The position numbers and the translations under genes were made by a program. A stretch of DNA of 64,000 bases from Marsupella aquatica (taxonomy: Eukaryota > Plantae > Marchantiophyta). Shown here piece by piece: positions 1 through 32,100 of this stretch (position 1 is its first letter; each line of letters starts with the position of its first letter). Location of the stretch: positions 20,218,451 to 20,282,450 of the forward strand of contig OZ316894.1 of the NCBI GenBank assembly GCA_973895155.1, written 5' to 3'. A model generated the notes under the pieces. It made no database searches and was not told the origin of the DNA. It worked only from the letters and a program-made list of their open reading frames with translations.

Positions 1-3000
1 GGTGTGTGTGAATCTGTTGATCTTGGTCTGAGTTTGCTTTGCTGGGGATTATGGGTAGAGAGAGGTGTGCCTCGACTGTTATGGAAGGGTATATCTTATG
101 ATATTTCTGGCATTTTAGATGATCAGTCTGGGGGAATTACATGGCATTGTGAGCCAAGTTGTTGCTTGGATGTTTTCCATCCAAGTAGAGAGAGTGTTGT
201 GAGTATAGCAGGCTGTTTTAGACACAAGGATTGCTTGAGGTTATCACAGAATGGAGGAGGATTTGAAAATCTAACTTGTAGTGAATGTGATTCTATAACA
301 CTAGAAGATGATTTTCGTGGACGGGTGCACAGGGAAGCGGAAGCAGTAGTCCACAGAGGGAGCCGAACCACTGCTGGTGGTATACGTTTGGATTATTTGA
401 CCAACACAGAGTTAAGAGATCAAGTGCACAACCTGAACTCTGTGCGACGAAAAGAGCGTTGGTTGTTAGCTTTGCAGGCTCAGAAAGTATGTGCCTTGAG
501 CACCAGGAAACGAAAACTAGAGGAGTTGTTAGGAGTTGCAGCAGACAGGAAGGATTTGAGATTGTTTCTTAGGAGTATTTTGAATGGACACAGGAATGGT
601 GCATTTGGTGGTAAGGAGGGTTTGTGGGATTTCTTGAAGGATGTAGCTCGCAATTTAGGCAGGAAGCCAAAAGGTAATCGTTACAGTAATAGGACTCGAG
701 CTATTGCTCAGGCTATGTTCCAATTTGGGGGCCGTCAAGTTGCTCATTGTTTTGCACGAAACTTGACAGCCCCTAGCCTTGTGACCCTAAAACGTGATAG
801 AGCAAAACTCACACCTTTTCGAACCGGGTTACGGAAGGAAACCTTTCAGGAGATTGCTAGAGTGTTGTCTGCTGCAAAGCACTCATTGGGCATTGAGGGG
901 GATGTGCCTGTTATCTTTGCTGAGGATGAAACAAGGATCAAAGAACGCCCTAGGTAATTGGAACTGGACATTTTTCCAATTGTTTTTTTAATGACTTTAC
1001 AAGTAGCACTTGGCTGGAATTGCTGTGATATTGAAAAATTGCATGTCTGTGTTTCAGGTGGGAGGCAAAGTATGATACTCTCATTGGTTTCTGTGGACCT
1101 TCAGAGCAGCATGTATGCTCCTATGGTTTGGAAATTCTAGTTGGTGAAGGTGATGAGGGGTATGATAAAATTGTAAGTACATTTGAACAATGCCCCAAGT
1201 GCATGTATGCCCGAGTTGTGATTGTGAATCCTCTGCATGAGTCCTTACCTAAATTGGCTGTGTGTGCACTTCCAACTTGTAATAAGTTCACAGCTTCTTG
1301 GGTACGAGAGCATTGGGTCCAGTTAAAGGCTTTTTGGGATGAATATTGTAGAGCTATGGTAGGCCCTTTGCTTGGACATGCTAGTGATGGTGATGCACGT
1401 CGCCGAAAGCTGATGCTGGAAGATTACAGAGGGCAGAATGGATCATACCCAAGGTACGGAGTTGGGTGGGAAGGGTGGACATACTCTGTTTCAATTCTAC
1501 CAAATGGAGATTTGTATGGCTTTGGTGACCAAGACCAACCTCATAATGGGAAAAAGATGATAAACCCCTTAGACAGAGTGTCTTCTTTACTGGTGCTAGG
1601 AGATCAACATGCATCTTTATCTTATGTAGCTAATGTCTACAATCATTATCCAATTCATGAACATGGCATGGCTTGGGATGATGTGAATAGGACTGACCGG
1701 CAGAATTGGGCAGGTCCACAACGAATAGCAGCAAGAAGAGTGCAGCAATGTCTGAAAGATATGTATGAGAGGAGAGATGTACAACATGAACGAAGTTTAG
1801 GAACTCAGTTGTACTTGGAGATTTGTGCAGATTACTTAGATATTTTCTTTTCTCCAGTTCATGATTTGAGGTCCCGTATTGTGTTAGCATCCAAGGTTTC
1901 ATTCTTTCTACGTTTGTGGAGATTGTGGTTGAGGTTTGGTGACCATTCAGTGGGTGGGAACTTTGCAGCACACACTGAGAAAGACATGATGTCTATTCAG
2001 GCTTTTCATGATGTTAACATGTCATGTCATTTCATTGTGCTGTTAATTTGTGCCTTTCGAGATAAGTTCCCACATCTAGGTGTTCCCTTCCACTTGCTAG
2101 GTTCAGATTGTTGTGAGATTTTCTTCAGCAAGGTAGGAGGCATGAGTGGCCATGAGCGGAATTATGATTTTGGCTCTCTATTGGATAGTGCTGTTGGACT
2201 GAACCGGCTTGCTGCCCTAGAATATGGACCAGAAGGCTTGAAGATAGGTCGTTCACATAAGAAACAAGATCATGTATGGGGGAAGATTCATCCTATAGGG
2301 GAAGGGGAGGAAGCACCAAATCTACTTGACTATTCTCTCATTGAGACTAATGAATTAGTGGTTGCAGCCCTTAAAGAAGGTTTTGTTGCTGCTAAGGATC
2401 TTATGCATCAATTGCAGATGTCTCCACGAAGTTCCTTACCAGCAGCTAGAAAGAGATGGTGGACATGTCCTTTGGTTGTGGAAAGTGAGACCTGGCCACT
2501 AGAGGTGGTTCTGAAGGAAGCAATTGTTTGCAATGATTCTGAGGAGCAAGTAGAGCACCAACCACCAGACATAGGTCCTCGCCCAACTGGAGATTTTCAT
2601 GAATTGGAAGATCCTGAGGATGATCTGAATAGAATAGATGCATGGTTAACAGAACCAGATCCCATTGTTGTTCCTGAGATGCATTCAGATGATGTACACA
2701 GAGATGATATACAGTTTGATGTAGACCCCTCAGATGAGCTTGAGACATTAGGTCATGAAGTTCGGCATGTGTTTGGATCAGTTGTCCATGCTGTAACTAA
2801 TGTACAGAATCGTACCAAGGTAGTGCCTACTGTTACTTATGAAGGCAAGGTGATTTACAAATCCACTCTGGTAAGCCAGTTGGTAGGAAATCCGCATTTG
2901 TCAAAAGATAGGCTGACAAGGGTGAAACAAGTGCTATACTATAGTACTGGCAAGAGAAAAGTGCAAGAAGTCAATCCTAACTCATGTTTTGTTGATGTTG

Positions 3001-3449
3001 GCACTGATTGTGCAATTGCATTTGAGTCTGATGATAGTCCTGCTCCAAGTACTAGATCTGGAAAAAGAAAGGGAGGAAAGAATAAGGTTGTGGTGGAGGC
3101 AATCTCAGCAGGTAAGAAATATTTTTGGTTGGGTCGGATTGTCCAAATGAGACAGAAGTATGGCAGTAGGTGGGGCAATTGTCGGTCACCAATTGATTTG
3201 ATGGATAGGCCAACTCCACTTGCAGGGCAATCAGGTAACATTTGTGAACTGTTGTTAAATTGGTATAGTCCTATTGGTAAGAGCAAAAGTGAATTCAGAT
3301 ATGATACCACTGATTTGAAATGGATGGATATTGAAATGGTCATTGCTAGTGTTAGTTTAACCATGAAAGAAGGGGTTATGGATCGTATCTATGTGTTGGA
3401 TCCAATAGATAGACGTGCTTTGGATCAGTATCTTCAAACAATGGTATGA
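1..3449 (+). CDS. Spliced DDE transposase, P-element/THAP9-like (5' truncated by window; exons <1-953 and 1058-3449)
   Basis: A GT-AG intron at 954-1057 (CCTAG|gtaatt...tttcag|GTGG) joins ORFs 4-957 and 1128-3449 in frame (ERPRWEAKYDTLIGFCG...LEILVGEG). Motif order AEDETRI, GHASDG, DQPHNGKK, DRQN, GSDCCEIFFSK matches the D / D / DxxH / E catalytic pattern of P-type transposases. There is an N-terminal HxxC..CxxC. No internal stops. Confidence 0.7.
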
Positions 3450-3461
3450 ATATCATGTTAC

Positions 3462-3541
3462 TGTTTAGTTTTTGAGAGTCTGTATATATGTTTTATTTTG
3501 TTGTTTAGTTTTTGAGAGTCTGTATATATGTTTTATTTTGT
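3462..3541. repeat. Perfect 40-bp tandem duplication just after the transposase stop codon
   Basis: TGTTTAGTTTTTGAGAGTCTGTATATATGTTTTATTTTGT present twice. Confidence 0.9.
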
Positions 3542-3575
3542 TAATATTAGTGGGTGTAGTGGGATAGGATAGGGG

Positions 3576-3635
3576 GTGACGGATTGGCAACTTGAGATCC
3601 TTTCTCAATTAGGGGTTCAATTCCCCTCCGTCACA
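3576..3635 (+). ncRNA. tRNA-like 60-nt structure lacking a D-arm (not called as a functional tRNA)
   Basis: Acceptor stem GTGACGG/CCGTCAC plus A. Arm TTGAG-ATCCTTT-CTCAA. T-arm AGGGG-TTCAATT-CCCCT containing a B-box-like GGTTCAATTCC. Confidence 0.4.
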
Positions 3636-4096
3636 TGTTACATCTCTCAACATAAGTTTTAAATGGAGTATGGATGGAGCATGGGATTGGTGATCAATGG
3701 GTGGAATGGATTATTTATGTTGTGACCTTAAAGGCCATCCCACTTATGCACGTAAGGTTTATATTGGGATGACCTTTTAGGTACACAATATAAATGATGC
3801 ATTGAAATGATCAAAGTTTAAGGTCGACAAAGGTGCAAGAACTGTTGCAGGGCGTGCCATGTCTGACATACGACTTCACAAGGTACTGACATAGACTTAT
3901 CTTTTCTTTCTAGGCATTTTATATTGATATGTGACACTTTACTTCACAAATTATAGGGGCAATACAATTTGGATTTTAGACTCTTAGAAGAAAGAAAGAG
4001 GGAGGAAAAAAAATTTTCAACTTAATAAGTATGGGGGTCTAGGCATGAAAACGTCGCAGGTGATGGGGGGGTCCTCCATATAGTGAGACCCCCGAG

Positions 4097-4987
4097 TGTG
4101 AACACAAACTTCCGATCAAGAAACCATGGGGCACCGGCCAAAGCATAGTCCCTATGTTCAGGGTTCCTAAATGTGACCATATAAAAGCTTTTCCCCACAA
4201 ATTTCACCTGTGTCACAGGCCAATTCATTTCATTCACAAAAGTTTTATTCACCCAGAATTTGAAGGTAGGAAGCATGGGGGCCCTGTCAGTGAAATAACA
4301 CATCATCGTGCAATTGAAGAGTTATGTGACAGTCTCAGCCGCCTCTTCCAAGGACCACTTGATCTTTGTGTGAAGCTTCGATGGCCATTCTTGGATAGAA
4401 AGGTCTGAGATCCTTCTCAGAATAGGTATACAGGCTGCAATTTCTTTTTCTTTTGTGGCTCCAGCTACTCGCTGTGCATTCTCAGTCTCCCTCTGAGCAT
4501 ACCCCGTATGGCGGTTAGAGTCAGTGTGCCCCGGCTCAAGTATGCTACGATCACCAATATCGTCCTGGAAATGTTCCGAGGTAGTCCTCTCTACCCTGTC
4601 TTCCAGCTCATTCATCAAACAACTTTTGCGAGTTCTCTCAGAGTCCCAGCGTGTAAATCCATCTCTCTCAATTCCAGAAGGTCTAAGTCCATACCAACTC
4701 TGTACAGTGTCACCAGGGGCCGCTTGCCCAGTATTCTCACTAGTAGTAGGTCGAGTGCCAGATGCAGCTCGAACATCCTGACTAGGTACTACCTTCCTCG
4801 ACAGAGGTTCACCCGCAAGCGCATCAGAGTAGCTACTTCGTGTCAAAGCAATCTCCTCCGGCCGGCCACTCGAGTGAGACCAATGCTTATCGCCCCCTTC
4901 TTCATCGTGCCTCTCAGCTCCATATCGATTAGAAGCAGGGCCCCTGCCCCTGCCCTCAGGTCCAGTCCAATGTCGATTACGTGACAT
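4097..4987 (-). pseudogene. L1-type LINE ORF1 (DUF4283-like), N-terminal part, one in-frame stop, truncated by the P-like element
   Basis: ORFs 4322-4987 and 4022-4306 are in the same frame, separated by one stop. FYMVTFRNPEHRDYALAGAPWFLDRKFVF is typical of the plant L1 ORF1 RRM/DUF4283 region. Confidence 0.75.
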
Positions 4988-7449
4988 ACTGTACTGCTTA
5001 GGGCCAGCTCTCCAAGTTACGTTGCCCCCACTGCTTCCTCCTAATTCGATTTTACAGCAATCTTTTGCACTAATCTCTCAAGAATTAAGTATAAAGCTTA
5101 TTGAAAACACAGAGCAAAACCGTAAGTGCTCACCCGTATCTTCCCTTTGAAGAATAGGTCCTCGCTATCCGTCCACCATTCCGATGAGAGAGATCGATCT
5201 GTTACCTTCGCAAAGATTACACCACGATGTGTAATCAAGATTATACCCCCTAATCCACGTTACTTTGAGTGACTCGTAAATCCGCTTGTCTTTACCTAAT
5301 CATCATCTGCATCCTACCTCAAGTGCGTGCATCCAGCACACGCCCACAGCCGCTCTCGTGTGTAATCAACCCTAAAAGAGATCTCCCGTGTGTCAAACCT
5401 AAAGCTAAAAATGACGAGAAATCACTTTGGATCGTAGTAATCACACTCCTGGAGTAAACAGTTCAGCAATTTGTAATCATCATAAGATCAGGCAGGTCGA
5501 TGACTCTGCCGCATCCATCCCGCACCACTCCCAGACCAAGACCGAAGGGCTCACAGTTCGATGAGTTCAGCTCCGCCAGACCATTTTTCAGCTCCTTGCA
5601 GCTCCTCTCCTTCAATTCAATCTCAAATAACAGTATGTTGACCGACATAGTCACTGAAAATCCTGAACCTGAGACGTGTAAGAATTCTTTCTTAGAGAGT
5701 GAAATAGCAAGTTTATCAGGGTTGAGCACAGTTAGCAACTGAGGGGACTACTGAATATCTTCCAATTTCTGTCAACAAAACATTGCCAGACAAACTTACA
5801 CTGGAGTTGCTAGTTGTAAGATCTGCAACATTTGAAGAGTCATATTCTCTTTTACCCTCTTGTTGGGACCAGTGGGAAATAATGACAATAAACTGAGGTA
5901 CTTGTGTGCATTACCTTCACGTGCTTACAGCGTCTATTTGTACCTCTGAGTGCGTATTTGTGTCCTACATCAAGCCCTTTAGCATTTCTCTGCAAGAAAT
6001 ACACAGCACTGTGTATTGGCCACAGAACCGAGTGAACTAGTAGTGGTGGGATTCCAAAGCTAGTTCTTGTATTCCGGGGGAGGGTAGTTGAGAATAATTG
6101 TATGTCTGGGAGATTGAAATGCCAGAGCGAGTTCTTCAGAAATAATGTAATATTAGGGCTTCTCAGAACTCAGTTCCAGGACTGACTTGCGGGTTCAGGT
6201 CATTCCAATAAATCAGGTTATGTGACCGTTTTTGATCTAAAAAATCAAGGTAACTATGACAATTGGTGCAGCGCATAGATTGCACTCATGATGAGACTGG
6301 TGATGTTCAGATGATGTTTTTTCTGCCGTTGAAATCAATTTTAATAAAGATACAAAAAAACATAAGGCATACAGAAAGAGAGGCCCAAAGAAAGCAAGGC
6401 CTAAAGTGAGAAACCAGGGAGGCTGTTGCCAAGGACAATCCTGTGTAGGAGGGTGCTATCCAAACTGTACCTAGTGTAATACCAACAAGTAATCATTATA
6501 GTGGGGTCTCCAACCACACTGAAGAAAGCTATATACGTCATATGTACAGCCTTTAAGAGTGGGTCACAAGTGAATTAATTGTAGCCAAGTCATTCTTCTA
6601 ATAGATTAGAAGAGTACCTATCCTGTCATAGTGTCCCTCATGATCTCCGCCAACATGTCAGGTAAATATGACAGTTGGGGGCACCAATCACAAAAGCAAG
6701 CTATGTACATCACATGTACGGCCTTTGAGTGTTGGTCAAAACTGCATATTCCCCACTGTTTTCTGGAGAAAGTAAATTATTAATGAAGTTTTACACTAAG
6801 GCATTTCTTGCAAAAATGTACTGCAGGGTGATTATGACACCCCATTAAAGAAAATCAGCTTTTAAGTACAAGTAAAGATGTTTAAATTTATAATAAACTG
6901 TTCTTTTTGTATTAACAAAAAATACCACAGTTTTGGTATATAGTTCCTCGGTTACCTGGTTAAACTTGTCACCTATATATAAAAAGTGGCAATTGTACTG
7001 AAAAGTACTTAAAATTATAAAGAAAGTAACAATTCTTTTTCAACATTCCTCCTTAAAACATTCCTCCTTAAAACACATGACCATGATCTACGATGGTATT
7101 GTCTAAATATACAATGTAGGGAAACAAATCCAAGACAACATCTGCAATACGGGAAGTCGGGAACAAACAACATCTGCAAAATGGTAACAAATTATGCACC
7201 TACAACATGGCTCACAACACTTCTTTCACCCAAAACATTGTCCAAGACAGATTCAATGGGTATACGGTTGCATTATTTTATTTAATAACATACAAGCAGG
7301 AAAATTTAGCCTAGCAAATGCCATGTCCATCAAACACTGTAATAGACACAATATGTCACCTTTTGTCGCAATTCGTCCATTTGCAAAATAAAAGGTTAGT
7401 GGGAATCATCTGTGGCCATTAGATCGTTTCACCTTTTTATTTTATCTTT

Positions 7450-7794
7450 TGTTAGGATTTATTCTTAGGTCTAGAGTTACAACTGTACCGTAGTTAGGGC
7501 TAACCTTAGTCACAGACTAGGTTAGGTTAGTCATGTTGTGCACACTCTATATCCAAGCGGTGTTTGTTTGGAGAGTAGGAACTCAGGCTTATTGTTACAG
7601 AGCCAGTTGAGAGATAGGGAGAGCTTGTGCTATGGACGTTTGATATGGCTGGCCGGCCTAGAGTGCAGTAAAGCTCTTGTGTGTTTCCATGGACATAATC
7701 TCATGTGGAGTAGAACCATGTATCTCTCGATGTTGATACTTGTGCGTTGGATAGTTCATGGGCTTGTTGTTGCGATTGTCGTCTATGCTCAATA
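7450..7794 (+). mobile_element. Solo LTR of a Ty1/copia family related to the element at 40839
   Basis: 345 bp, TG...ATA (decayed ACA). The 3' ~215 bp aligns closely with LTR 40839-41184 (GTTGAGAGATAGGGAGAGCTTGTGCT...GTCGTCTATGCTCAA). Flanks TCTTT/CCTTT give a 4/5 TSD. Confidence 0.85.
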
Positions 7795-8458
7795 CCTTTG
7801 ACCATAGAAAGAGAGTGTGTAGCTACCCTGAATGGCCCTTGCCATGTGTGCCATGCGATGCCCTGCCAATGTGATTAGGGCTATAAGTCCCTTTTGACTT
7901 TTCATACCCACTGCCCAAAGTGTCTGCAGCAAAAACTGGTTAAATACTAAAAATGCTTCCATGGAGCAGGCTCTCACATAGTGGTAGCTCTTGCGAGTGG
8001 GGAAGCAGAGCTTTTGGGTTTGAATGCCCTATGCACCCAACTTGTAACACAAACCCCACTGAAAAGTGGTCTTCAGACTAAGCTTGTATGACACTTAGAA
8101 AAAATAATCAATTTTCACATTTTGCGAGCAAAGGTAGGTTATAGTATGTCCCCACCTCCCCCCCCCCTGGTTACCTCTATTTTATTCAAGAAACAATTTA
8201 CTCTCTCATACTGGATGGATTACTTTATTGACTATGTAATATTTACAATTAAACTCCAGTCATTATGTAGCACCTATATGCATGGATGATATAACATGGA
8301 TGATAGAGAGAGGAACATGCTATTACATGGATGGTGGAAGGAAGAGCCGTGCATGGTATAGCATGGATGGAAGTACAACGAAAGGAAAGAAAACAAAAAG
8401 AGGAAGCAACGTGCATTTACTGTATCATTCACATCAAATATAATTTACATAGCATGGA

Positions 8459-9746
8459 TCCCGGTTTGGACTTGTCCGACAAATAGAGGCCTTTGGACTC
8501 GACAACCGACAAGTTGTCACCCGGTCCACCCCGGTCCCCGGTCCCCGGTCCACCCCAGTCCCCGGACCGAACTCCCCGCCCCGGTCTGTACTCCCGGCCC
8601 GGTCCCTTGCCGGCCCGGCCCCTTCCCCTTCCCGGCCCGGCCCCTTCCTTTCCCGGCCCTGCCCCTTCCCAGCCCAGCCCCTCCCATTCCCGGCCTCTTC
8701 CCTTCCCGGCCCAGCCCCTCCCATTCCCAGCCCGGCCCCTTCCCGGCCCGGCCTCTCCCATTCCCGGCCCGGCCCCTTCCATTCCCGGCCCGGCCCCTTC
8801 CCTTCCCAGCCTCTTCCCTTCCCGGCCCGGCCTCTCCCATTCCCGGCCCGGCCCCTTCCCTTCCCAGCCTCTTCCCTTCCCGGCCCAGCCCCTCCCATTC
8901 CCGGCCCTGCCCCTTCCTGGCCCAGCCTCTCCCATTCCCTTCCCGGCCTCTTCCCTTCCCGGCCCAGCCCCTCCCATTCCCGGCCCGGCCCCTTCCTTTC
9001 CCAGCCCTTCCCCTTCCCTTCCCGGCCTCTTCCCTTCCCGGCCCAGCCCCTCCCATTCCCGGCCCGGCCCCTTCCCTTCCCGGCCTCTTCCCTTCCCGGC
9101 CTCTTCCCTTCCCGGCCCAGCCCCTCCCATTCCCGGCCCGGCCCCTTCCCTTCCCGGCCTCTTCCCTTCCCGGCCCAGCCCCTCCCATTCCCGGCCCGGC
9201 CCCTTCCCTTCCCGGCCTCTTCCCTTCCCGGCCCAGCCCCTCCCATTCCCGGCCCGGCCCCTTCCCTTCCCGGCCTCTTCCCTTCCCGGCCCGGCCTCTC
9301 CCATTCCCGGCCCAGCCCCTTCCCTTCCCGGCCTCTTCCTTTCCCGGCCCAGCCCCTCCCATTCCCGGCCCGGCCCCTTCCCTTCCCGGCCCTGCCCCGC
9401 CCCTTCCCGGCCCAGCCCCTCCCATTCCCGGCCCTGCCCCTTCCCGGCCCTGCCCCTCCCATTCCCGGCCCGGCCTCTCCCATTCCCGGCCCTGCCCCTT
9501 CCCGGCCCTGCCCCTCCCATTCCCGGCCGGGCCCCTTCCATTCCCGGCCCTGCCCCTTCCCGGCCGGGTCCCGCATCCCGCCCGGCCCTGCACTCGGCCC
9601 GCCCTCACCTAGTGTTTGTGAGGCCGGGCCGGGGCCGGACCGGGGCATAAGAGGGAATATGCGACAAATAGGGTCATTTTTGGGCGACAAATGACAAGTT
9701 GTCGTGTCCGACAACACGACAAGTTGTCCGACAGCTCAAACCGGGA
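8459..9746. mobile_element. Non-autonomous TIR element filled with C-rich minisatellite
   Basis: TIR TCCCGGTTTG/CAAACCGGGA. Exact flanking duplication CATGGA (or 8 bp with one mismatch). Subterminal TGTCCGACA and GACAAGTTGTC motifs occur at both ends. Confidence 0.75.
8520..9645. repeat. Degenerate GC-rich minisatellite (CCCTTCCCGGCC / CCCATTCCCGGCC units)
   Basis: About 1.1 kb almost devoid of A on the + strand. It produces spurious long ORFs in several frames. Confidence 0.95.
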
Positions 9747-15500: not shown

Positions 15501-17511
15501 CCTGAACTTAATTGTCCAACAGATGCCATCAAGACTTAACCAGACCCTTGTGACTCCACACTGTTGTCAGGTTCTTGTGAAGTGGTTATCAGAGCATGAT
15601 TCACTTTCATACAAGAACAGCATGTCACCAAGCAGTAAAACACAGTTGGGACCAGAGTAGAGGTGATTTATCAGAGGCTCTTGGAGAAGCGGTTTAGGCA
15701 ATCATGAACAACAAGCTACAGGCCAGGTGGCAGGGTCAGTTTCAAATAGTAGCATGAATGGGAGCATGAACAACAAATGTTGGGGAAGGGAGCAAGGAAA
15801 GGGAGTTTCAGCATAGGGAAAGCTGCTTCAATTTTCTTCACAATTCTGACCAATTACTCAAGGCACCATAGAATACAAAGGGCACCCTGATATTCAATTG
15901 TTGGCAATTCGCGTTCAACAGCAAAGCTTGCCTGCCACCGCACAAGAATGACAGCCCTTCCTGGCCTGTTAACTCCAAATTTTCCATACTTCTAAGTGGA
16001 CTATATTATCTCAATAACTTATAATGTACCTTAGAGCTAGGCAATCAGCTTCCGCTGTTCTGGATTTTCAGAATAGAGGAAGCGCCCTCTGAACAGTAAG
16101 TGTGTGACTTAGTGTGTGCACTCCTGGACCAACAAGAACCTGGGGCGACTATGTGCAATCATAGGGGTCCTGTTAAGTCTTCATGGCATCTTGCTGGACT
16201 GTTAAGTCCAGGAGATGCCAGAAGTCTTTTCTTGCAGCTCAGTGCTTGGGGGGTTGCTCACTGTCTGAGCTTGGTGCTTGGTGACTCAATGCTTGCAATG
16301 CCCTTGAATCTATTGTGACTATGTGCTCCACTTATTCCTGGCTCTTTTTGGCACCTTTTTTTTGGCTTATTTTGGTGCCTTGGCTGCTTGTTTTTGGCTC
16401 AGTTTTGGTGTTCATGCCTCGTTTCATGCTTGTTTTGGCCTTTGCCTCCACTTCTTGTTGGCTCTCATTGGCTTGTTTTGGTTGCACTTGTGCTTGGGTG
16501 TGTTTTGGCCTATCCTGCTCAATTTTGGTGCTTGGCTTTGTTTTGGTCTATGCTGCTCAATTTTGGTGCTAAGTTGTGCGCATGGGCGGCTCTCGTGCTT
16601 GTGCTCACTTCAGCATTAGCTACATTGTTTTTGGCTGTGCGCCTCAGCTGCTGAAGATCTTCTTGAATGGGGATCTTCTTCTTGTTGGCTTTTGTACCTT
16701 GGATGCTCTCATTCCTGTGTGTATTAACCAGAACTCACCAGAAAACCCGGCAAAAACACTTTGAAGGAAAGGAAAAAAATTCAGATCACTATGACATTAT
16801 CCAATGCCACTCAGGTCCATTGATATAATACATACTTAGTAGCGAGCTTAGTAGTGTAGCCATATGATTTGTTAGTTATTGGTATCAGTCTAGCCGTGTT
16901 GGTGAAGTGACATTAGCATACTAAAATACTACTTGCACTCTATTTAATATTTTCATTATACTGTTCTTAGTCCTGTTGGTGTTAGTGTCTTGCAATTTTT
17001 TTTGCAGCATTGCTCAGCTTTTCATACAAATGCAAGTTTTCATTCTGTTTAAAGGGGTTATTTTTCCGTTAATTGGGTATGGAACAAACCACGATGGTAC
17101 TTATTTGAGGAAAGACAACATAAAATGCCTGGAATGTTAAAGAAAACTCACAACTTACATATAAATGAAACAATATAACAATGTTGGAATGTCTTTGAAT
17201 AGGGTATGTGATAAAGGTATATGATATTAAACTACAGTGCTGGGATGTGAGGTTAGCAGAATACGAGCTCAGGTCTGAATACAAAGCATATGTAGTAAGC
17301 CACTGATAATGTTGGATGTGAGGGTTACTCCAGAGCATAATTATTTGGTAAATATAAAATTGCTGGATGTGATAGGCATGATGTTTGGATGTGAGAGTCA
17401 CTCCAGAGCATAATTATGTGGTAAACATGAAAAGAAATCAACATAGGGTCTCTTTTCACCCAGCTTTGATACAATGTCTAATATATTCTTAGTCACATAA
17501 CACCTTGTTTG

Positions 17512-18765: not shown

Positions 18766-19066
18766 TGGAAATCATTCTGCTCTTCTTCTTGGATTTGATA
18801 AGCTTCCCAATTCACGTCCTCTAACGAGAAAGAGGAGGCTCTTCAGTTCTATATCTCGCGTTGGGAGGGGGGAAAAGTTTGCAGCAGGTTCACTTTCTTT
18901 GGAGAATCTAGTGACAACTCGCAGTGCTTCTTCACTCCAAGAGCTAGGAAGAGGAATTTGTGCATTTGTGCAGCTGTAGAAAGTGCAGACGATCTCTCAG
19001 GATACAGCATTTGTAGTCGTTTTGTGGGACGAAGCAATTTTATCGAGCTTGGTGGTGTCGCCCACC

Positions 19067-22000
19067 ATGGCAATCTTGGATGATTACAGTTCAGGGAACA
19101 GCGACGCTGTTCCTGAATCAGACAAACGGATTGGCGCAGAGCATAGTGATCCCGAAGTTATGAGACCGGATCTTGAAGGAGGAGGCGGTCCAGAAAATGG
19201 TGAAGAAAATGGTCGAGAGGATGGTCAATGTGTGGAGACGGGTGCCGCAGGAGCAGCAGCAGGGGACGGAAACGGGACTGCTGTTGAGAAGGTGCCCACC
19301 AAAGAGGAGGCTGATCTGAAGAAGGAAACGGTAGCGAAAAAGCAGCGGCAGTCCACAGTGCCGTTCATCAAATTGTTTTCGTTCGCCGACAAGTATGATT
19401 ACTTGCTGATGTTCGTCGGAAGTGTTGGCGCCGCTGTCCACGGTTGTGCGATTCCCATTTTTCTGCTGTTTTTCGGGAAGGTGCTGAATGGGCTTGGAGG
19501 GCAGCATGGGTCTTTGTCAACAAATACGATAAATACGGTACGTCATCTTGTCCCCGGAAACCTCCCTACCGTGCTTCGGAGCAAGGTCAAGCATCTTGCA
19601 AGCTGTTCGATTCAATCCTTCGGGTTCTACGTTGCCAATCAATTTATGCTCCGTGGCTCTTCCCTTCGCACATGGCATGGAAAGTATGTAAAGGGTACAT
19701 ATCGCAAAGCAGCAAATTACTTATGCAAATCTTTGGAACGGATGTATTGAAAGACAGCAATTACTTGTATTGCTCTGTTTGAACGGGATGTGGCTGGAGC
19801 ATTGGCAATTAGTTACGGAACGGTGCCCAGTTCCTCCGTTGCGGGAGGCCATCCTCTTCCTCGATTGAGTTTCTCTGCATCTCCTTGTGTGCTTCTTGTT
19901 TTTACCCATATATTACAATTTGGATGAATGTAACTGGAAAACTAGATCTCGTCATGATTGAGTCAAACAAAATGTATGTTAAATGCTGTGTCAGTATCCG
20001 GTCGCAATCAGGCTTTCTGTGGAGCCTTGCCCCTCGATTGATTTGTCATGTCTCAACAATCCTTCTTCCTTTTGGTGACAGACGTTTTGGCTTGAACTTA
20101 CTCCAAAACACCAAGAACAGCCATTCTCATCTTTGGCTATACATTTAACCTAGAATGCAGACCAATTAAACGTTACTCCGTTCGGAGCTTGAACGCCGGC
20201 TCAATCGATGCAATATTGCAATGCAATGCAGTCTGCGGTGGACCAGGGACAAAGTGACGGGTGTGCTGGGCGTTGATTGTATTATGGTCACCTAATGCGA
20301 ACGCTAACCACTCCCACGGGCGTTGTGCGCAGTATACATTGGACTTTGTGTGGCTGGGGCTTGTAACTTTTGCCGCATCATGGATAGGTAAAATCTCTCT
20401 CCGATTCGCATTGAAAGTTCCGTTGAATCTCTTCTGCTCCTTTGACAGTTCTCCTCAATTATTAGAGAGACTTGAGCGTTTCACTAAGCTTTCTACGACA
20501 GCACATGTTCTCTACATGCACGAGATTGCGTTGCATTTTGCCCCCGGCTTACGCTTTCTCGGGCTTCGGTACTTTCCGATGCAGAGGTGTCACTTTGGAT
20601 GCTGACTGGAGATAGGCAGTCAGCGAAACTGAGGACTAAGTACCTCGAGGCATTACTGCGACAGGATGTGGCGTTCTTTGATACTGATACCAACACAGGA
20701 GATTTTGTATCTAGCATTGCTTCCGAACCACTCATGGTGCAGGATGCAATCAGCGAAAAGGTACGCTCGAGATGATTTCTCGGGTCGGATATAATTACGT
20801 CCATGCTGAGCGCATTCCAATTCAGTCCCTGTATGTCTTTTGTTGGGCAGGGCAGGGCCTCACCGTTCTCTTTTGATTTCATTTGCAGATGGGTAATTTC
20901 ATCCACTTCATGTGCACGTTTGTTGCTGGGTTCGTCGTCGGATTTACCACCGAATGGCGCATTGCTCTAGTGACAATCGCCATCGTACCTCTCATTTCAG
21001 GAGCTGGGGGTACTTATGCATATACTTTGAGCCGTAGCACTGCTCGTGCTGCAGCTGCGTACGCCGAAGCTGGAACGCTTGCAGAACAGGTGTGTTAGCA
21101 TGCGTTTGTGTTTGTGTGAAATGTTGGTGCAAAGTACAGCCCTACTCTCCGGATTGATTTCTTTTATAAAAATAGTGATGATTGTACGGAGAATGTCTTG
21201 ATTCATCGTGTCCCATTTCCGCGCTGTTCGCCGTTACTTGGCACAAGATTTCAGAATTGCACAAAATAGCGCAGCACCCGTTGGCCCAATTAATTTACTT
21301 CGTAATTTTCAATCTTTCAGTGACTGCCGAGTATCGAATCAGATTGGAATGTCGCTTAGGTTTGGTGAATTTGCCATGGAATCCATCTTTTGCCAGCTTT
21401 TCAGGACATGAAACTCTTGACCGAATCTAAATGGTGTACTTCTCCGTCATTGTCAATGCAGGCTATATCTCAGGTGCGAACAGTGTATTCATTCGTGAGC
21501 GAATCAAAATTCATCAAGGCTTATTCTACGTCTTTAGAGAAGACAATGAAGCTGGGTGCAACTGCTGGACTCGCCAAGGGTATCGGAACGGGCTTCACTT
21601 ATGCAGTGATCTACCCCTCTTTTGCACTCCTCCTCTGGTATGGCGGTGTTCTTGTCCGCCAAGGCGCTATCAATGGTGGTCAGGCGCTGGCAAGTATTTT
21701 TGCAGTCGTGGTCGCGTCAACGTAAGTGAACATTCATCTCTCAATTATTCATCTTTAAGTATTTTAGAACAGAGGGTTGTCCTGTGCCACCACACTGTGA
21801 GCAATTGAGATAAAGAATGAGAGTTTAAATTCTCATTCTAAGGATTTTATCTTTGGTAACCCACTGACAAGGCAAGCTCTGGATCTGGATGTAGTGGAAT
21901 TCAAAAATTAGAAGAACAAAATTTCTAGATTGATAGGCGTTTGAATCTCTCGTGCTCCCCATTCAATCCTCCACTTTGGTTTTCCGTGGACTCTGAATCT

Positions 22001-25000
22001 CAATTTAATTCATTCAATTGAACCCATTGACTACAAATGCAGCGCTCTGGGCCAAGCAATGCCGAATCTCACCTTTTTCGCCAAAGGAAAGGCAGCAGGG
22101 TATAAAATTTTCAAAATGATCGATCATGAGTCCATTATCAATGCGGTTGACGAAAACGCCGAAACACTTGACGTGGTGGACGGTCATATCGAGCTCCGCA
22201 ACGTCGACTTTGCCTACCCCGCACGGCCAGATGTAATCGTCTTCAAAAACTTCTCCTTGGTCATCCCTTCGGGAAAGACAGTGGCCATCGTTGGAAGCAG
22301 CGGTTCTGGAAAAAGTACTGTTGTATCACTCATTGAAAGGTTCTACGATCCCGTTGCAGGTAATCATGAAAGACTCCTCCTGGTCGTTAGCTGTTTCGTA
22401 CGCTTACATCGGCGTTTGATTTTGATCCCTAGAGATTCAAACGGCTATCAATTCAGAAATTTTACTCTTTCAATTTTCCGCGAGACTGACTGACCGACCA
22501 TAATGGATTTGCAGGCGAGGTACTGCTAGATGGCTATGACATAAGAAAGCTAAACCTGAAGTGGCTCCGAGGGCGGCTTAGCTTGGTGAACCAGGAACCT
22601 GCATTGTTCGCGACGACTATTGCTGCGAACATTTTGTATGGGAAGGATAATGCCAGTCAGGAGGAGATTGAAGCTGCTGCGAAAGCTGCCAATGCTCATT
22701 CTTTCATAGAGAAACTCCCACAGGGCTATCAAACTCAGGTGAGTCTATCGTCCTCGCATTAATTTGAGATTGAGGCTGGAGGGATAGTGCCGACTCAGTT
22801 GTCAGCTACACTTTGAACGAAAGATTTAATTTGGCTATTTAGAGTATATCTACGTTTCCAGGGTTAGGCGGCATTTGTGCATATTTGGGAGAGATCTGGG
22901 TAAAGGATACATTTTAATATGGGTCAGTGATGGACGGTGTTAATGCAAGACGACTCTCACCGGTAAGGCATGGATACATTGAGCAAATGGAACGAAATGG
23001 AATTGAATGAAATGTCCACTAGGTAAGGAAACCATGCATTAGAAAATAGTCAAAACGGGGTCTTCTGAATTGTGGGCGATGAAATAACTGGTGGAAAGGC
23101 GGGAGTGCATCGAGAACAGGGTACCAGCGGATTATTCATTAAGGCGTTGGACAAATGTTTTTCTTACAAGGGGATCAACATCAGCTCAAAATGGTAAGGT
23201 AGATGGACTTGCTCCAATAATCCTGGCTGGTTGTGATGGACTGCTTCTGTTGGCATGACAGGTTGGAGAGAGGGGCATCCAGCTCTCAGGCGGTCAGAAA
23301 CAACGTGTAGCCATAGCTCGGGCCATGTTGAGGAATCCAGCAGTTCTATTGCTAGACGAGGCCACCAGTGCCTTGGACGCGGGGTCAGAGCAGATTGTGC
23401 AGGAAGCTCTGGATCGCCTGATGGTGGGAAGGACAACCATTGTGGTGGCACATCGGCTATCCACCATCCGAAATGCCGAGAGCATTGCAGTTGTGCAGCA
23501 AGGTCAAATAGTTGAAAAGGGTAGTCACCAAGAGCTCATATCCAGAGAGGACGGGGCATATTCTGCACTAGTCCGTCTGCAGGAACTGGCTGCAACGAAA
23601 AGTGGTAGCATGAGACGCAGCTCCTCTAGAATCGGCCAATCAGAAAGGTGAATTCTCGCTCATTGTTGTGTGGTTGGTTGTCTCCTGAATAGACGCTTCA
23701 AAAACTACTCTTGTCCTACTAGGCACCCAATTCATTGAATTCACGCATGTGTCAGTCTGTGTTCACTGGCAGGATAGTCTTCACCCTTCCGACATGCAGC
23801 AGGATGGTCACAGTGTTAATCTTGGTAGAAATTCTTTCTGATTGGAGATCCTTTCAAACCACTTTAACACTCGTGATAGCTTGCGGTAGTACATGACCGT
23901 GAATTTGAAGAGAATGGAACAAATGAAAGATCCTGCTTAGAGAAAGGAGAGGAAACATTTGCAATTGCCTTAACTGTTGATGGTGCTCAGAAAATTCTTC
24001 TTTGTGCAGGATTTCACAAGGGAGCCGCTCTGGTAAATCTTTCTCCTTTTCCATGATGCGTGGTGGATCTATTAAATCAGTAGAGGTGGGCGAAGCAAGT
24101 GAAAACCTCATCCAGGAGGAGTCGCAGGAAACTTCAAAAGGATCATTCACGCGGCTCATCGCAATGTGCAAGCCCGAGTGGAAATATGGCATAGGAGGGG
24201 TCATAGGATCAATGTTGGCTGGCTGTCAAAACCCTGCATTTTCTCTCATCATAGGGGAGGTGCTCACAGCGTACTACGAGCCCAACAACAAAATGAAGAG
24301 CGATATCAGCGTGTATGCGCTCATTCTAGTGGGTATTGGTGTATTGTCGCTGTTCATCTACGTCCTGCAACATTACAGTCTCGGAGTATTGGGGGAAAAC
24401 CTCGTCATGCGTGTACGAGAAAGAATGTTATGCAGTAAGTATCACTGCCGTCTTGCCCTTCGTCTTTCTTGCTAGGTCGTAATGTTACTGTGTATTACAT
24501 GCCCATATAAATGTCGTTCCTGTTATATCGACGTGTAATACATATGGATGTTGAAGACCCCACTTCACTGAGAGCATTGATCAACAAACTTGATCTCGCT
24601 TGTTTTAGGATAGATGTTTCTTTTCTTATGAAGTGAAGTGCCTGCATTTGAGAGTTGGGGATGCCGTGAAAAAAGGCAAGATAGCATATCAAAAGTAATA
24701 GGAAGATAAATTGCAAGAGAAAAGGCACAGAACATCAGCTGTTTGAAGTGGAATCGACTTGTACACCTTAACTTCAGTACTTCGCGACATTCCTGAAACC
24801 CATTGTTTTGCCTTATACCTCAAACCTTGTCATTCGAATAGTGGGTGATTCCCTCACCTACCAGGCCTAGCTTTAACGGTAAACGTGCTTGTGGCAGCAA
24901 TCCTTCGGAATGAGCTCGGATGGTTCGACCGAGATGAGAACAATAGCAGTCAGATACTAGCCCGTTTGAATTCCGATGCAACCAATGTGAGAGCAGCTAT

Positions 25001-26902
25001 TGGCGACAGGGCGGCCGTGATCTTGCAGAACACAATGCTTATATGTATTTCTTGGATAATCTCAATCGTTCTTCAATGGAAGTTGGCTCTCGTGATCATC
25101 TCTGTTAGTCCGTTGCTTGTGTTGTCAAATATGGCCCAGGTATGCGTCCTTTTCCCGTCCCTCTTCCAGCTTTGTCTCTACCCTTTCAATTACAACCACC
25201 TGTTACGCACGAGATCGAATTACTTAAACGTAGGAGAGCTATGGGAGGTCTAATACGCTCATGGTCCTGCCACAAGAGGCCGGACGTTAAACAAATTCAG
25301 AATCCTCTCGCTCAATCTCCTGTATTCCCCCACACATAGATACCCGTATTTGAATGCATCTTCGGTGGAAATGGGAGCAGCTTATTCATGTAAAAATTCT
25401 TTGTTCGGTCGGGTGATTCTAAAATAGGTAATCATGCTTTGAATTTTTCTAGAAGAATATAAAATTCTTTTTCTCTCCAAGTATGTAAGACTATAATGTT
25501 TCTTAAAGATAGATATTAGGGTTTTCTGCAAGTATTTAACGGACACAGGTTGGTACAGGTGGGTTTGGGGAGTGACGGTGATATTTATTTAAAAAGAAAA
25601 TAGACTCCTTGAGCGATGGTTGTATAGGAAAAAGCTTGATGAATTGGTTGATTGTTGCAGAAACTGTTTATAAAAGGCTTCTCCGGAGACCTCAGCAAGG
25701 CATACATACGCGCAACACAAGTTGCCGGCGAGGCAGTGACCAACATCCGGACAGTGGCAGCATTTCATGCTGAGGACAAGATCCAAGCTTTGTTTGCAAA
25801 AGAGCTGAAAGGTCCATCAGGCAGAAGTTTTCTTAGAGGACAGGTAGCTGGATTCGGGTTAGGACTTTCCCAATGCCTGATGTACTGCTCCTATGCATTG
25901 GGCATGTGGTACGCCGGCACGCTCATCAATGGCGATGGTGCCAAGTTCGGGAATGTGATCAAGGTCTTCTTAATCTTGATCATTTCTGCAACTTCTATGG
26001 CTGAGACCTTGGCCCTCACTCCTGATCTAGTCAAAGGAGGTCAAGCGGTGGAATCTGTATTCGAGGTGCTCGATCGAAAGACGACCATTGAACCTGAAGA
26101 TCCCGAGGGAGCGCAGGCAGATAAAATATCAGGAGAGATTCAACTTAAGAACGTTACATTTGCTTACCCTTCCAGACTCGACGTAGTCATCTTCAAGGAC
26201 CTGAACTTGAAGGTTCGGTCTGGTCACAGCCTTGCTCTTGTGGGAGCCAGTGGGTCAGGCAAGAGTTCAGTGATAGCTCTAATAGAGAGATTCTATGATC
26301 CTATTTCCGGGCAGGTTCTCATCGACGGGAAGGACATGAAGAAGTACAATTTGAAGTCAGTGCGTCGACACATTGCTCTCGTATCACAAGAACCGGCTCT
26401 CTTCTCATGCTCCATCTCCGAAAACATTCTCTATGGGAAAGATGGAGCCAGTGAGGCAGAGGTGATAGAGGCTGCGAAGGCTGCCAATGCCCACAAGTTC
26501 ATCAGCTCTCTTCCGGATGGATATGAGACTCAAGTAGGGGAAAGGGGCGTGCAACTGTCTGGTGGACAGAAGCAAAGGGTTGCCATTGCTCGTGCTGTGC
26601 TGAAGGACCCTGCAATCCTCCTACTGGATGAAGCCACGTCTGCATTGGATGCCGAGTCAGAGAAGATCGTGCAGGAAGCACTCGACCGGTTGATGAAGGG
26701 CAGAACTACGGTCATGATAGCCCACCGTCTCTCAACCATCCGAGGGGCTGACACCATTGCAGTTGTTCAAGACGGTACCATTCTTGAGGAAGGTTCCCAC
26801 GACGATCTCATTGCGAAAGGTGGCGGGTATGCCCGCCTCATCAACCTCCAAAACCGCCACCAGGAGCCGAGCCAGGAGTATGGTGAAATCTCGAGGGTTT
26901 GA
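19067..26902 (+). CDS. ABCB: Full-size ABC transporter B family (MDR/PGP, ABCB1/ABCB19-like), 11 exons, ~1332 aa
   Basis: Exons 19067-19537, 20333-20387, 20585-20760, 20889-21089, 21462-21721, 22043-22359, 22515-22738, 23262-23647, 24010-24434, 24898-25139, 25661-26902. All introns are GT-AG, phases are consistent, total 3999 nt. Start context CCACCATGG. Two Walker A ([16 protein letters not shown]), two LSGGQKQR signatures, two [23 protein letters not shown] layout. Confidence 0.96.
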
Positions 26903-29900
26903 GGGGAAATCTAGAGGGATTGAAGGAGATCCTTCTCGTTCTCGTGAAACCTACTGGAAATGAGGGAAAATTTTCTGGGTCTGCTGAAAGCTCCTGGGAT
27001 GGAAGGAGAATTGTGATGGGGAAAACTGTTTTTTCTCCTCTCTGTTCTTGCTCAACCAGATCGTCGTCGCGTCGCTGCCGTTGTTCTTCTGCATTGTTCA
27101 GACAGGGCTCACTAAAGCTCGCCTAAACTGTCTGATGTAGCTCAGATCTTAAGGGCAGATATTGGAGGCAGGCTATAGGGAGGACGTTTTTGCCTTTTGT
27201 GTAGTGACGCGCCTGTGCGAGCGCCTGAGGAGCAATTTTGAATTCATATTTCTTTCGGGACAACTCTTCACAAACCAACATTCGGATTTCCTCCCAACCT
27301 CGAGAATGATCAGGCATGGGGTAAATCCTACGACTGATGCCTATTCTACTTCAACTATACCGGTGGCCGACTTTTTCATGAGATAATTTGGACTCTTCGT
27401 CAAGGGGGGCGGGCTTGTGTGGGTGTAGTTGGTGAGCTTCTGGGGAACTGTGAGTCCCACATTTGCTCCGCATCGCTTGTTCATTCGTTGAGTCTTCTCT
27501 CTGGACGTGCCTGAATTCAGCACGTCTGCCTCTTTGGCTCTCAGAGATTTAGGATCCTGTCTTTGCTCCGCGGCCGGTCGGTCTCTGGCGATTTACCTCG
27601 TGTATATCTATCCTTTTGAGTCATTCAAGCATTGTCACTGGGAAGAAAAGTTGCCAAGATTCGGGAAATGTATCCGTGAAACATTTCACGTGTGCCTGTC
27701 CCCCACCACCCTGGTTACAATGAACTACAGTAGCCCATAGCTGAGCATCAAGTTGACAAATTTAGGATTGCGTGGCCAGTATAGCATGATTGAGGCAAAG
27801 GTGAGATTTTAGAGCCCAAGAGATCTACAGTCGACCTCTGGGCTTCGTGCAACAAGTGCAGCATAGATAGGCTTGTAAACAATCGTGTTCCCAACAAGAA
27901 TTCCCTTGAAGGTAGGGAAGGAGATGATTTGCTAGAGCACCCCACCCTCTAGAGCGACGATCTACAACTTAGAGTTCTTGATTAGATTTGGGCAATGTCG
28001 TCTGAGGAAATGATTAGATATGGGCAATGTCGTCTGAGAAAATACATAGTTGGTAAGACCTCGATAACCTGGCCCTCCAAGAAGAACCAAGGAGAGAAAA
28101 TCGGTTTTCGTTTCCAATCATCTATAGGTCAAGCTGCATCTGAAGCCGAGACTTGTCACACCTTTGTGTCTAGTCGGATTTCAATCCAACCCAATTATGG
28201 AAAGAAATGGAGATATGAAGAAAATAGAGACACATACAAGTTTGTCTTCAATTGGCGTTATTTTGGAAAATATTAAGTGACAAATTTCATAACACGGGGG
28301 ATGCCTTTTTCTTTGTGTCGAGACGGAGTCACTCTCTGTAATAGCTGACCACAAGATAGTCGGTTCATTCTTCAAACGAAACATTGGTCTTGCCGAGTAT
28401 CAAGAGTGTCTCTGCCTTTTGCTGGAAGATATCGAGGAGCAAACCAAAATTGCTGTTTGCTTGAGACTCCCAGAGTACAACAAGTTTGACCAAGCGGGGA
28501 TTGACGTGGAGTTGGAAAAGACAGAGAAGTAGAGAGATTTCACTTCCCACCGACTACTCAATGAAGACATCCGTTTCCCAATAACACCAGAAGTAGTTTC
28601 TAGAGATACTCTTACCTTCTACTTCACGAGTATTTTTGAGTGGAGTAAGGAAGATTTTGTTTGAGACTTCATCGTAGGGAGAAAAGGGGAGATCCGTCCG
28701 GGAAATCTGCCAGAGGAAGTTAACGACAAGAACGAAAAGGAAATGTTCAGTAATCTTCTGAATGAATATAAATCAGTGACTTTGTTTGAAAGAAAATCCT
28801 TTGAGCTGGCAACACTTCGATGTAAATTAGGACCTGATGACTACAAATGCCGAGTCTTTGATCGGAAATACTGTGAAGTTCTGAAGGGCTCAATGATGGG
28901 TCATTCTTCCCTCGCACTCGAGTAGACTCGAGTCTACCTCGTTCCAGTCGAGTGGGATGTAGGCAAAGCTGAGAACGATCCATTCTACAATGGAACTCCC
29001 TTCAAGTCTTGACCAACACTTGAAGATGTGAAGAACTGCTACTTCTGGATAATTGGAGGACAACATACAATTGAGGCTTACAAATTGCTGATTGCCGATC
29101 CGAAATTTGATTCGAAAAAAAGAGAGGAACTCCTCATGGTTACAGCCACTCTCTTCTGGACACCGTTCAATCTCGTTGAGAATACGAAGATTATGGGCCT
29201 CTCACAAGCTTTGAACAACATGAACAAGGCAACAATGCCAGAAAGTCAGTGCCTTCTGATGGCAAAGCAAGTCAGGAAAATCTGGGTGTCGGCCGAGAGA
29301 CCACCATCATTGAGCGGACAAAAAGCAAAGTCAATGTGGAAAGTATATTAAGTTGTCTTTGACTTGGGTCATTTGATAAATAATTGCAAGAGCTCGAGCC
29401 GCGGAACAGTGTTCCATGGGATCCTGAGATCTTCATTATTCTTATCTTTCTCACTCTGCTTTCTACATTTGCAGCCATTTTGTGTCGCGGCCCATATTGC
29501 GTACCCAACAGCTGTCATGGTCAATGGAAACATGAGATTCATCGAGATGGCACCGTTTTTGTTTGAGATGAAGGACAACACGTTTGAGCTCTGGATGGAA
29601 GTTCAACGTCTCTCAGAAGATGGTCTGCTCGTCCACTCAAATAAAGTTCTCCAGCACATAGCAAAGCCATATCAGGATAGAACAACGTGGCATCTCCGGA
29701 GAAGGTTTTTCCGGCATATGCAAGGTCTTGAAGATCGAGATCTGAAAAAGCTGGCAAAGTATTTGATTTTGAGAGAGAAGGTGTCGCTCTTCCCGAATAG
29801 GACGAATGACAAGAATTACGACCCTGTTCAAATGGAAGGGTGGAGGTCACTTGAGGAGTTTTGCCTCGAAAAAAGAATAAGCATATTTTTGAATGCATAT

Positions 29901-31259: not shown

Positions 31260-32100
31260 TAGAGATTTGCCGATGGAACTATGTTCTACGGGGCTACCCT
31301 AAATTTGTGGACGGAACAGTGTTTCGCGGGGTTCTTCTTAAGTCTTTGCTGATGGAACGGGTTTTCCGCGTGCTTAGTCGGATTTGCCCACAAAACGCTG
31401 TTCCGCGGGGTTCTTCGTAAGTCTTTGCCGACGGAACGGTGTTCCACGCGCTAAGCCGGATTTTCAAACGGAAAGCTGTTGCACGCGCTGAGCTTGGGGG
31501 TTTCACTTCCACAAAAATGGCATATCACGTGCGACGAAGGATAGGGTCATTTTATTGGTTGTAAGGGAAGACTTAAGAATTTTTGTAGAAGAACTATAGG
31601 GTCTTTTAAATTCAATTTTGAGACTTATAAGAACATTAGGGCCTTTTTAATCCAAATTTTGGAATATTCCAAGAATATTCCAACTTTATAGGGGTTAAAA
31701 AGTAATTTTTTTTCTTACATTTTAGGGGGTCCAAGGCCTAAAAACGTCGCAGGTGATGAGGAGGTCCCCATGTAGTGAGACCCCCGAGGCGCCGAGTAGG
31801 ATTTGTGGACGGACTGGTCTCCCGCACACTTAGTTGGATTTGCGGACAGAACGGTGTTCCGTGCGCTTAGTTGGATTTGCGGATGGAACGGTGTTCCGCG
31901 CGCTTAGTTGGATTTGCGGATGGAACGATGTTCCACGCGCTTAGTCGGATTTGCAAACAAAATGGTGTTCCGCGCGCTTAGTCAGAATTTTGGACAGAAT
32001 GGTGTTTTGCGCGCCTCTTTGGATTTGCGAATGGAACGGTGTTCCGCGCGCTTAGTCGGATTTGCAGACGGAACGGTGTTCCGCGCGCTTAGTAGGACTT
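31260..32100. repeat. 37-bp CpG-rich tandem repeat array in an intron, split by a MITE
   Basis: Unit TTAGTTGGATTTGCGGATGGAACGGTGTTCCGCGCGC (TAGTTGG at 31831, 31868, 31905). Internal inverted repeat GGAAC-GGT-GTTCC. Confidence 0.9.
31493..31788 (+). mobile_element. 296-bp MITE of the P-like family
   Basis: TIRs CTTGGGGGTTTCACT / AGTGAGACCCCCGAG (13/15). TSD GCGCTGAG (31485-31492) / GCGCCGAG (31789-31796). The right end is homologous to 4033-4096. Confidence 0.85.

Follow-up and report, generated by a model that had tools for sequence, protein, structure and literature searches.

The transposon, its ends and its copies

We analysed a 64,000-nucleotide stretch of DNA of the liverwort Marsupella aquatica (assembly GCA_973895155.1, contig OZ316894.1, positions 20,218,451 to 20,282,450, forward strand), hereafter the window. 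Its first 4,096 nucleotides hold the 3' part of what is most probably a cut-and-paste DNA transposon with a P-like transposase. A short non-autonomous derivative, a miniature inverted-repeat transposable element (MITE), lies further downstream. The features of both, including their terminal inverted repeats (TIRs) and target-site duplications (TSDs), are as follows.

1 to 953, plus strand: transposase exon, open at its 5' end, with a Cys/His-rich region, a predicted helical or helix-turn-helix (HTH) region and the first catalytic aspartate, D309 (925-927)
954 to 1057, plus strand: phase-2 GT..AG intron of 104 bp
1058 to 3449, plus strand: last transposase exon, with the predicted RNase H core (D428, E671), a P-type helical insertion carrying DxxH (1533-1544) and D668, an acidic linker, the C-terminal domain and the stop
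2979 to 3413, plus strand: predicted C-terminal beta-barrel, conserved across the family, with a weak resemblance to BAH domains
3462 to 3542: 40-bp tandem duplication within the element's 3' non-coding region
4055 to 4064, minus strand: sub-terminal motif ATCAC(C/G)TGCG, 33-42 bp inside the end and common to several family ends
4082 to 4096, minus strand: right TIR of 15 bp, reading inward CTCGGGGGTCTCACT
4097 to 4104, plus strand: predicted right TSD copy of 8 bp, TGTGAACA, based on the 8-bp TSDs of the related locus L003 and of the MITE; its partner lies outside the window
4097 to 5077, minus strand: decayed remnant of an L1-ORF1-like reading frame, interrupted where the element ends, the insertion target (weak match to DUF4283, E 0.076)
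31485 to 31492, plus strand: left TSD of the MITE, GCGCTGAG (right copy GCGCCGAG, 31789-31796)
31493 to 31788, plus strand: 296-bp non-autonomous derivative (MITE) with both TIRs, of a high-copy family

The transposase open reading frame (ORF) was obtained by joining frame +1 (1-957) to frame +3 (1035-3449) via the intron, and the splice junction restores the peptide R-W-E-A-K-Y-D. The product covers window positions 1-3449 and 1114 amino acids, and is stop-free to one terminal stop, as an initial annotation claiming a spliced ORF of more than 1100 amino acids had proposed; its start, like the left TIR and the left TSD copy of the element, lies outside the window. Judged by its full-length relatives, which measure about 1480-1530 amino acids, roughly 400 codons would lie upstream. 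The predicted intron is independently supported, since locus L036 carries a GT..AG intron within the same Arg codon and 60 of the 69 related loci matched at the junction are contiguous (intronless) there. A further locus, L004, has an acceptor matching that of the window intron. In the 3' non-coding part we also saw an imperfect 100-bp palindrome (3705-3803), and contig variants with deletions ending near 3704.

The element ends at position 4096. Its final 64 bp (4033-4096) recur, at 88% identity, as the right end of the MITE (31725-31788, E 6e-15). Public contigs were drawn from read runs labelled as three organisms, which held a share of 0.42-0.90 of the element, and in each of the four runs read depth dropped from the 4001-4200 bin to the 4201-4400 bin, by a factor of 20 to 28 in three. 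These two observations confirm the defined terminus claimed in the initial annotation. Its identification of the target as L1 ORF1 held in part: a decayed minus-strand frame is indeed interrupted at 4096, but it resembles L1 only weakly.

Eighty metagenome loci of the family were available for comparison, of which 41 were covered by a TIR/TSD scan and all 80 by a motif-pair scan. Locus L003 holds an element that is complete at 6096 bp: its inverted repeat of 26 bp starts CTCGGGGGGGTCACT, its coding part is one frame of 1520 codons, and the TSD GTTTTCAT flanks it with 8/8 positions identical. Right ends downstream of the transposase start with CT in the window, L003, L006 and L010, with CC in L001 and L011-L013, and with CA in L035, L045, L046, L047 and L052, the last five being decayed and identified with a loose pattern. 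A search for the left ends of L011-L013 gave none. The first base is C in every family end seen, corresponding to a 3'-terminal G, and the ends take the general form C[T/C/A]NGGGG..CACT. Elements of the P superfamily have short TIRs with a consensus starting CA, and the terminus of zebrafish Pdre2 starts CAT. The unusual CT start pointed out earlier is therefore real for the window end and is not fixed in the family. Most right ends contain a CAC(G/C)TGCG-like motif 33-42 bp inside, a candidate transposase-binding site. In L001, the stretch 308-9065 (8758 bp) includes 3.3 kb of extra DNA after the transposase with a 174-codon frame lacking Pfam matches, either captured sequence or a chimeric assembly.

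The flanks of the MITE, GCGCTGAG and GCGCCGAG, are identical at 7/8 positions, for which the chance is about 4e-4 at window composition. Together with L003, this substantiates the family member with an 8-bp TSD reported initially. The MITE sits in a 37-bp tandem array, and we rejected array periodicity as the source of its TSD because the duplicated 8 bp are extra to the array register. In read run X1, 2225 contigs align on the MITE, with a summed depth of 4e4-1.3e5 inside versus 80 or less outside. Forty-three of the contigs leave the match exactly before 31493 and 27 exactly after 31788, into flanks that are unlike one another (agreement 0.35-0.39). The MITE is thus present at dozens of insertion sites. 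Among the contig joints listed, none crosses the MITE site as an empty allele would. Around it, 29352-30516 (plus strand), 31264-32102 and 32270-33160 hold two ORFs without Pfam matches, the 37/41-bp tandem array that was the MITE target and an acidic/basic low-complexity stretch, and the region 29352-33160 is possibly another decayed element. At the far end of the window, a palindrome of about 60 bp recurs in every one of the tandem units, about 500-580 bp long, that make up 61573-64000; its arm, CTTGGGGAAATCACT, is like the family TIR at 12/15 positions, through chance or as a tiny derivative.

For the full element, four X1 contigs span about 2.5 kb with 2 differences and a depth of 454-526, and flank contigs have a depth of 13-24. 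A 949-bp X1 contig follows the flank from 4735 down to 4097 exactly, with 310 letters left over, and an X3 contig beginning at 4097 carries 13 unmatched letters; such contigs may come from alleles with an empty site or from further copies of the L1-like target that are not interrupted. Loci L011-L013 share 99.4-99.9% identity and part company precisely at the right end, where they continue into three different flanks. Because near-identical copies are many and the MITE occupies dozens of sites in the reads, recent activity, raised as a possibility in the initial annotation, is likely.

Fold and superfamily of the transposase

Since the catalytic core of the window protein is split by the intron, we built an AlphaFold model on an intronless homologue, P0011, which is 47-50% identical to the window protein, using a 38-row alignment (predicted local distance difference test, pLDDT, 87.6; predicted template modelling score, pTM, 0.85). 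Foldseek placed the Drosophila P strand-transfer complex (6p5a) first, with E 3.3e-10 and a target TM-score of 0.74, followed by RAG1 (8.6e-4), Transib (3.3e-3) and Hermes (0.11). In a VIA-align comparison over 48,161 chains, 6p5a reached Z 24.2 with a root-mean-square deviation (rmsd) of 3.6 over 415/442 residues, and the next row had Z 8.8. The alignment runs over model residues 51-557 and chain residues 128-566, so that the helical insertion domain of the GTP-binding type is included. Hermes, of the hAT group, and Transib/RAG1 share an RNase H DDE core with a helical insertion but are far weaker structural matches (Z 7-8, rmsd 5-8). The P affinity proposed from the motifs is thus matched by the structure search, with 6p5a far ahead of RAG/Transib, hAT and other DDE folds. 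The model predicts a P-type fold for the window transposase, in which a helical insertion like that of P interrupts the RNase H DDE core (D309, D428, E671).

Feature searches in the Atlas agreed. For the Riccia homologue P0004, the best match (0.93) was a cluster with PF21787 on 13% of its members, and the ten best family-bearing matches all share family or clan with PF21787. Clusters with P-type Pfam families at 0.86-0.89 are leads only. Basidiomycota-rich clusters also lie near this family (0.92).

The catalytic residues are nearly invariant among 108 aligned family members: D309 of EDET (nt 925-927) is kept in 104, D428 of SDG (1386-1388) in 103, D477 and H480 of D477-x-x-H480 (1533-1544) in 105 and 108, and D668 and E671 (2106-2117) in 93 and 108. 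At the D668 position, three residues before the catalytic Glu, 12 further members have Asn. In the motif series DE...SDG...DxPHxxK...SDxxExFF that was read from the window all residues are present, but the Pro of DxPH, kept in 8 of the 108, is not a conserved part of it.

The initial annotation had suggested looking upstream for a THAP domain. The N-terminus of the window copy lies outside the window, and Pfam scans found no THAP domain in the full-length relatives P0068 and P0088 (E<=1) or P0103 (E<=0.05). As THAP is restricted to animals, its absence excludes only the animal P/THAP9 type. The full-length relatives instead have a Cys/His-rich region and two CxxC...H motifs that look like C2H2 fingers. 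This assignment follows the residue pattern, because the Atlas gave no usable match for the N-terminal 530 amino acids of P0103 and the N-terminal parts had no Pfam match.

At the other end of the protein, the C-terminal 212 amino acids are conserved family-wide and were confidently modelled as a beta-barrel (pLDDT 82.8). In the structure search 9 of 21 rows at Z>=5 were titled BAH, and the others include chromo and Tudor barrels; 8 further rows at Z>=5 are BAH-bearing proteins. The best Z, 6.5, lies below the caution level of 8, and the best Foldseek E was 0.052. Pfam BAH was not matched by this domain, and sequence and profile searches of the PDB with it gave no match. Aromatic residues in the patterns W/Y-x-G-R-I/V and x-W-Y/F are common in the plant members. 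We regard the weak BAH likeness of the modelled barrel as a lead, not a result. Extra SAP, C1 and weak OTU-like domains were seen in the distant family members P0202, P0204 and P0064.

Compared with the Drosophila P transposase (6p5a/6pe2), whose superfamily includes 1360, Galileo and THAP9/Pdre, the liverwort element shares the predicted HTH and RNase H core with the same helical insertion, the DDE triad with an Asp three residues before the catalytic Glu, and a short TIR with a 3'-terminal G and an 8-bp TSD. TSDs of the superfamily measure 7-8 bp, and its elements have associated MITEs, as in the case of BuT5 (PMC3698922). The liverwort element differs from fly P in its 12% identity, in the size of the full-length relatives (about 1500 versus 751 amino acids), in the spacing between first and second Asp (119 versus 73), in having two predicted C2H2 fingers and a Cys/His-rich region instead of THAP, in the extra C-terminal beta-barrel, in its 15-bp G-rich TIR (with family starts CT/CC/CA) and in its land-plant host. 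Of the features of the P superfamily, then, the fold, the insertion domain and the 7-8-bp TSD are present, and CA-starting ends, a Pfam match above cut-off and the animal-type THAP are absent.

We consider it highly probable that the family is a divergent THAP-less P-like lineage of seed-free land plants. With comparable confidence, we read the window element as a cut-and-paste DNA transposon of that lineage that is autonomous and likely active to this day; its transposase likely mobilises both the full element and the high-copy MITE, leaving 8-bp duplications. Several observations weigh against this. Pfam gave no match on the window protein across both exons, P transposase was not found in the PDB by phmmer or profile at E<=10, and the comparison of the P0011 model with 6p5a yielded the 12% identity mentioned above. 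Of 54 relatives scanned, only one, P0061 from Nymphon, had a P-family match (PF21787) above cut-off; P0035 and P0218 had sub-threshold P-family matches. The fold itself is known from the model of a homologue rather than from the window protein. Both TIRs and a TSD were found together in 1 of the 80 loci only (L003), and the flanks of L001, which has both TIRs, do not match and thus give no TSD. The element/flank depth ratio in X1 is about 20-40 fold, contig depth not being true copy number. Finally, amino acid 790 is Leu in the window copy and Trp in all four read runs, so this copy may be impaired.

Some of these points would also fit a separate superfamily, sister to P, with the same catalytic fold, its own DNA-binding and C-terminal domains and ends of its own, possibly independent of GTP. 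The low identity to 6p5a without a profile link, the missing THAP domain, the large size of the group (950 clusters at E<=1e-30) and a C-terminal beta-barrel, where the P transposase has an all-helical C-terminal domain (PMC7776569), speak for it. We nevertheless judge it unlikely, given that one member does exceed the PF21787 cut-off, that the nearest named Atlas clusters are P-type and that the 8-bp TSD, DxxH and the Asp three residues before the catalytic Glu are all as in P; THAP is in any case confined to animals.

Distribution and origin of the family

A first search returned 64 matches, 29 of them named to species: 27 from Riccia, one from Adiantum and one from Nymphon. A profile search added Calypogeia and further Adiantum members among its best 120 of 133 matches, and reached 950 protein clusters at E<=1e-30. 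Seed plants were not found among the named matches listed, a weak negative given annotation masking. For the family trees, core-spanning sequences were kept from 325 proteins, 7 same-cluster duplicates were dropped, and the window protein and 6 partial relatives were added, giving 108 rows and 441 columns, of which 51 rows were run in IQ-TREE. The trees hold members of this family only, with canonical P, Galileo, 1360 and algal P outside their sampling. The window, Riccia, Calypogeia and Adiantum sequences formed one clade with 22 further sequences (SH-aLRT/ultrafast bootstrap 100/100, stem 0.43), and branches inside it are deep. Within it, a liverwort-containing group (97.9/99) is sister to another group (99.9/99), and the ferns lie outside both. 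Deeper tree nodes were poorly supported. Over the core, the window protein is 58-63% identical to Riccia members, 50.5% to Calypogeia and 43-44% to Adiantum, and its identity to sequences beyond the clade does not exceed 37%.

The host context is given by one gene:

18980 to 26902, plus strand: host ABCB transporter gene, intron-containing

Its last long frame is 86-88% identical to two Calypogeia fissa proteins. Among best matches, Riccia and Marchantia reach 74-77%, and moss, fern and seed plant about 70% or less. The land-plant context assumed at the outset is thus well founded, the gene being closest to liverwort proteins and pointing to a host that is probably a leafy liverwort.

The initial annotation had also offered horizontal acquisition, and a recent entry into liverworts from an animal, fungus or alga would account for the scatter of named members over Riccia, Calypogeia, Adiantum and a sea spider, seed plants not being among the matches listed. 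It would also suit an element closer to Riccia than to Calypogeia in a host whose own gene is closest to Calypogeia, and it has a precedent in GingerRoot, which ranges over a clubmoss and aquatic animals (PMC6839031). Such an entry is very improbable and we rejected recent inter-kingdom transfer, because the named plant members in the trees all fall in the single fully supported clade with its deep branches, with ferns apart from liverworts, and sequences outside it are at best 37% identical. By the same clade support and outside identity, the data suit a lineage long resident in plants better than one imported recently. The family may have been transferred into early land plants in ancient times, or from one liverwort to another; the closer likeness to Riccia than to the Calypogeia copy could reflect old paralogous lineages or this second kind of transfer.

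A domesticated, immobile host gene comparable to THAP9, in which the ORF stays intact through selection for a host function, would explain the intact frame with its conserved intron. It is hardly credible, since the element ends sharply at a TIR within a decayed L1-like frame, is read at high depth, shares its ends with a MITE family and has a relative flanked by a TSD. hAT elements have 8-bp TSDs, which are common in plants and agree with those seen here, but a hAT assignment can be dismissed for practical purposes, since the fold comparison is far better for P (Z 24.2 and E 3.3e-10, against 7.9 and 0.11 for Hermes) and hAT Pfam matches are absent from the window protein and the scanned relatives. 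Kolobok elements duplicate a 4-bp TTAA and were rejected, as the TSDs here are 8 bp and differ between sites. Entries for Kolobok were absent from the fold-search lists of the P0011 model, and Pfam holds no Kolobok profile (PMC5751038).

Proposed mechanism, precedents and neighbouring features

By analogy with the fly P enzyme, the transposase of this P-like element would pair the two element ends, excise the element and join its ends to target strands with an 8-bp offset, probably with GTP held beside the terminal G. The predicted N-terminal C2H2 fingers would bind the sub-terminal motif in place of THAP and, more speculatively, the C-terminal barrel might read chromatin. In fly P, GTP contacts the terminal G as well as D528, K385, K400, V401, S409, F443, D444 and N447, and D528 lies three residues before the catalytic E531; the enzyme requires GTP and cleaves the ends with a 17-nt stagger (PMC7776569). 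Because the terminal G and the Asp at the corresponding position are both kept, GTP use by the liverwort transposase is likely. Fly P is described as the only known GTP-using transposase (PMC7776569), and with an intact THAP-less relative of 12% identity one could test whether the fold used GTP ancestrally. A bolder version, which we find doubtful, makes the family an ancient undescribed P branch or sister superfamily, persisting in seed-free plants since before the fern/liverwort split and still jumping, with THAP replaced by C2H2 fingers and a BAH-like reader steering insertion into silent repeat-rich DNA such as the L1 relic and the tandem array.

P elements outside animals are on record for Chlamydomonas (P-2_cRei), Pucciniales, Allomyces and Trichomonas (PMC9977147, PMC5751038, PMC3698922); these share with the liverwort element a P class outside animals, are compared here by description only, and none of those cited comes from a land plant. 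A THAP-less P element is thus not new in itself, THAP being an animal domain. Land-plant DNA transposon superfamilies are listed without P in Table 1 of PMC9033089 and in the introduction of PMC6839031, in line with the earlier remark that P is not usually listed there, and the available parts of PMC9985172 and PMC10952607 do not mention P elements. Our literature search found no report of P elements in land plants, with Repbase, Dfam and transposable-element library supplements, which may list the family, beyond its reach; nor did it find BAH domain, transposase, DNA transposon and P element together. GingerRoot, a DNA transposon group of Selaginella and aquatic animals (PMC6839031), was similarly overlooked in seed-free plants and has relatives in aquatic organisms, but it has an integrase-like transposase and belongs to an unrelated group.

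In one liverwort genome annotation the row holding P counts 0 elements and 26% of the sequence is unclassified (PMC12130436). A family of about 950 protein clusters that Pfam misses, together with its high-copy MITE, would account for some of that fraction and bring a further superfamily to the land plants. As a native active element, it could also serve as a gene-tagging tool in liverworts.

Other repeats share the window. A CACTA/EnSpm transposase (Transposase_21, DUF4218, DUF4216) occupies 52254-56249 on the minus strand, adjoined by an ORF with NSD-type PHD fingers (56823-57494, minus strand). Relics of a Copia pol (43811-46622, plus strand) and a Gypsy gag (33760-35442, minus strand) were also seen. 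A GC-rich 58-bp satellite (21+16+21) with about 16 copies, open in six frames, lies at 8592-9591. Inverted-repeat pairs were found at 15521-16191 (40-bp arms) and at 21904-22477 (54-bp arms), the latter bracketing an exon of the ABCB gene.

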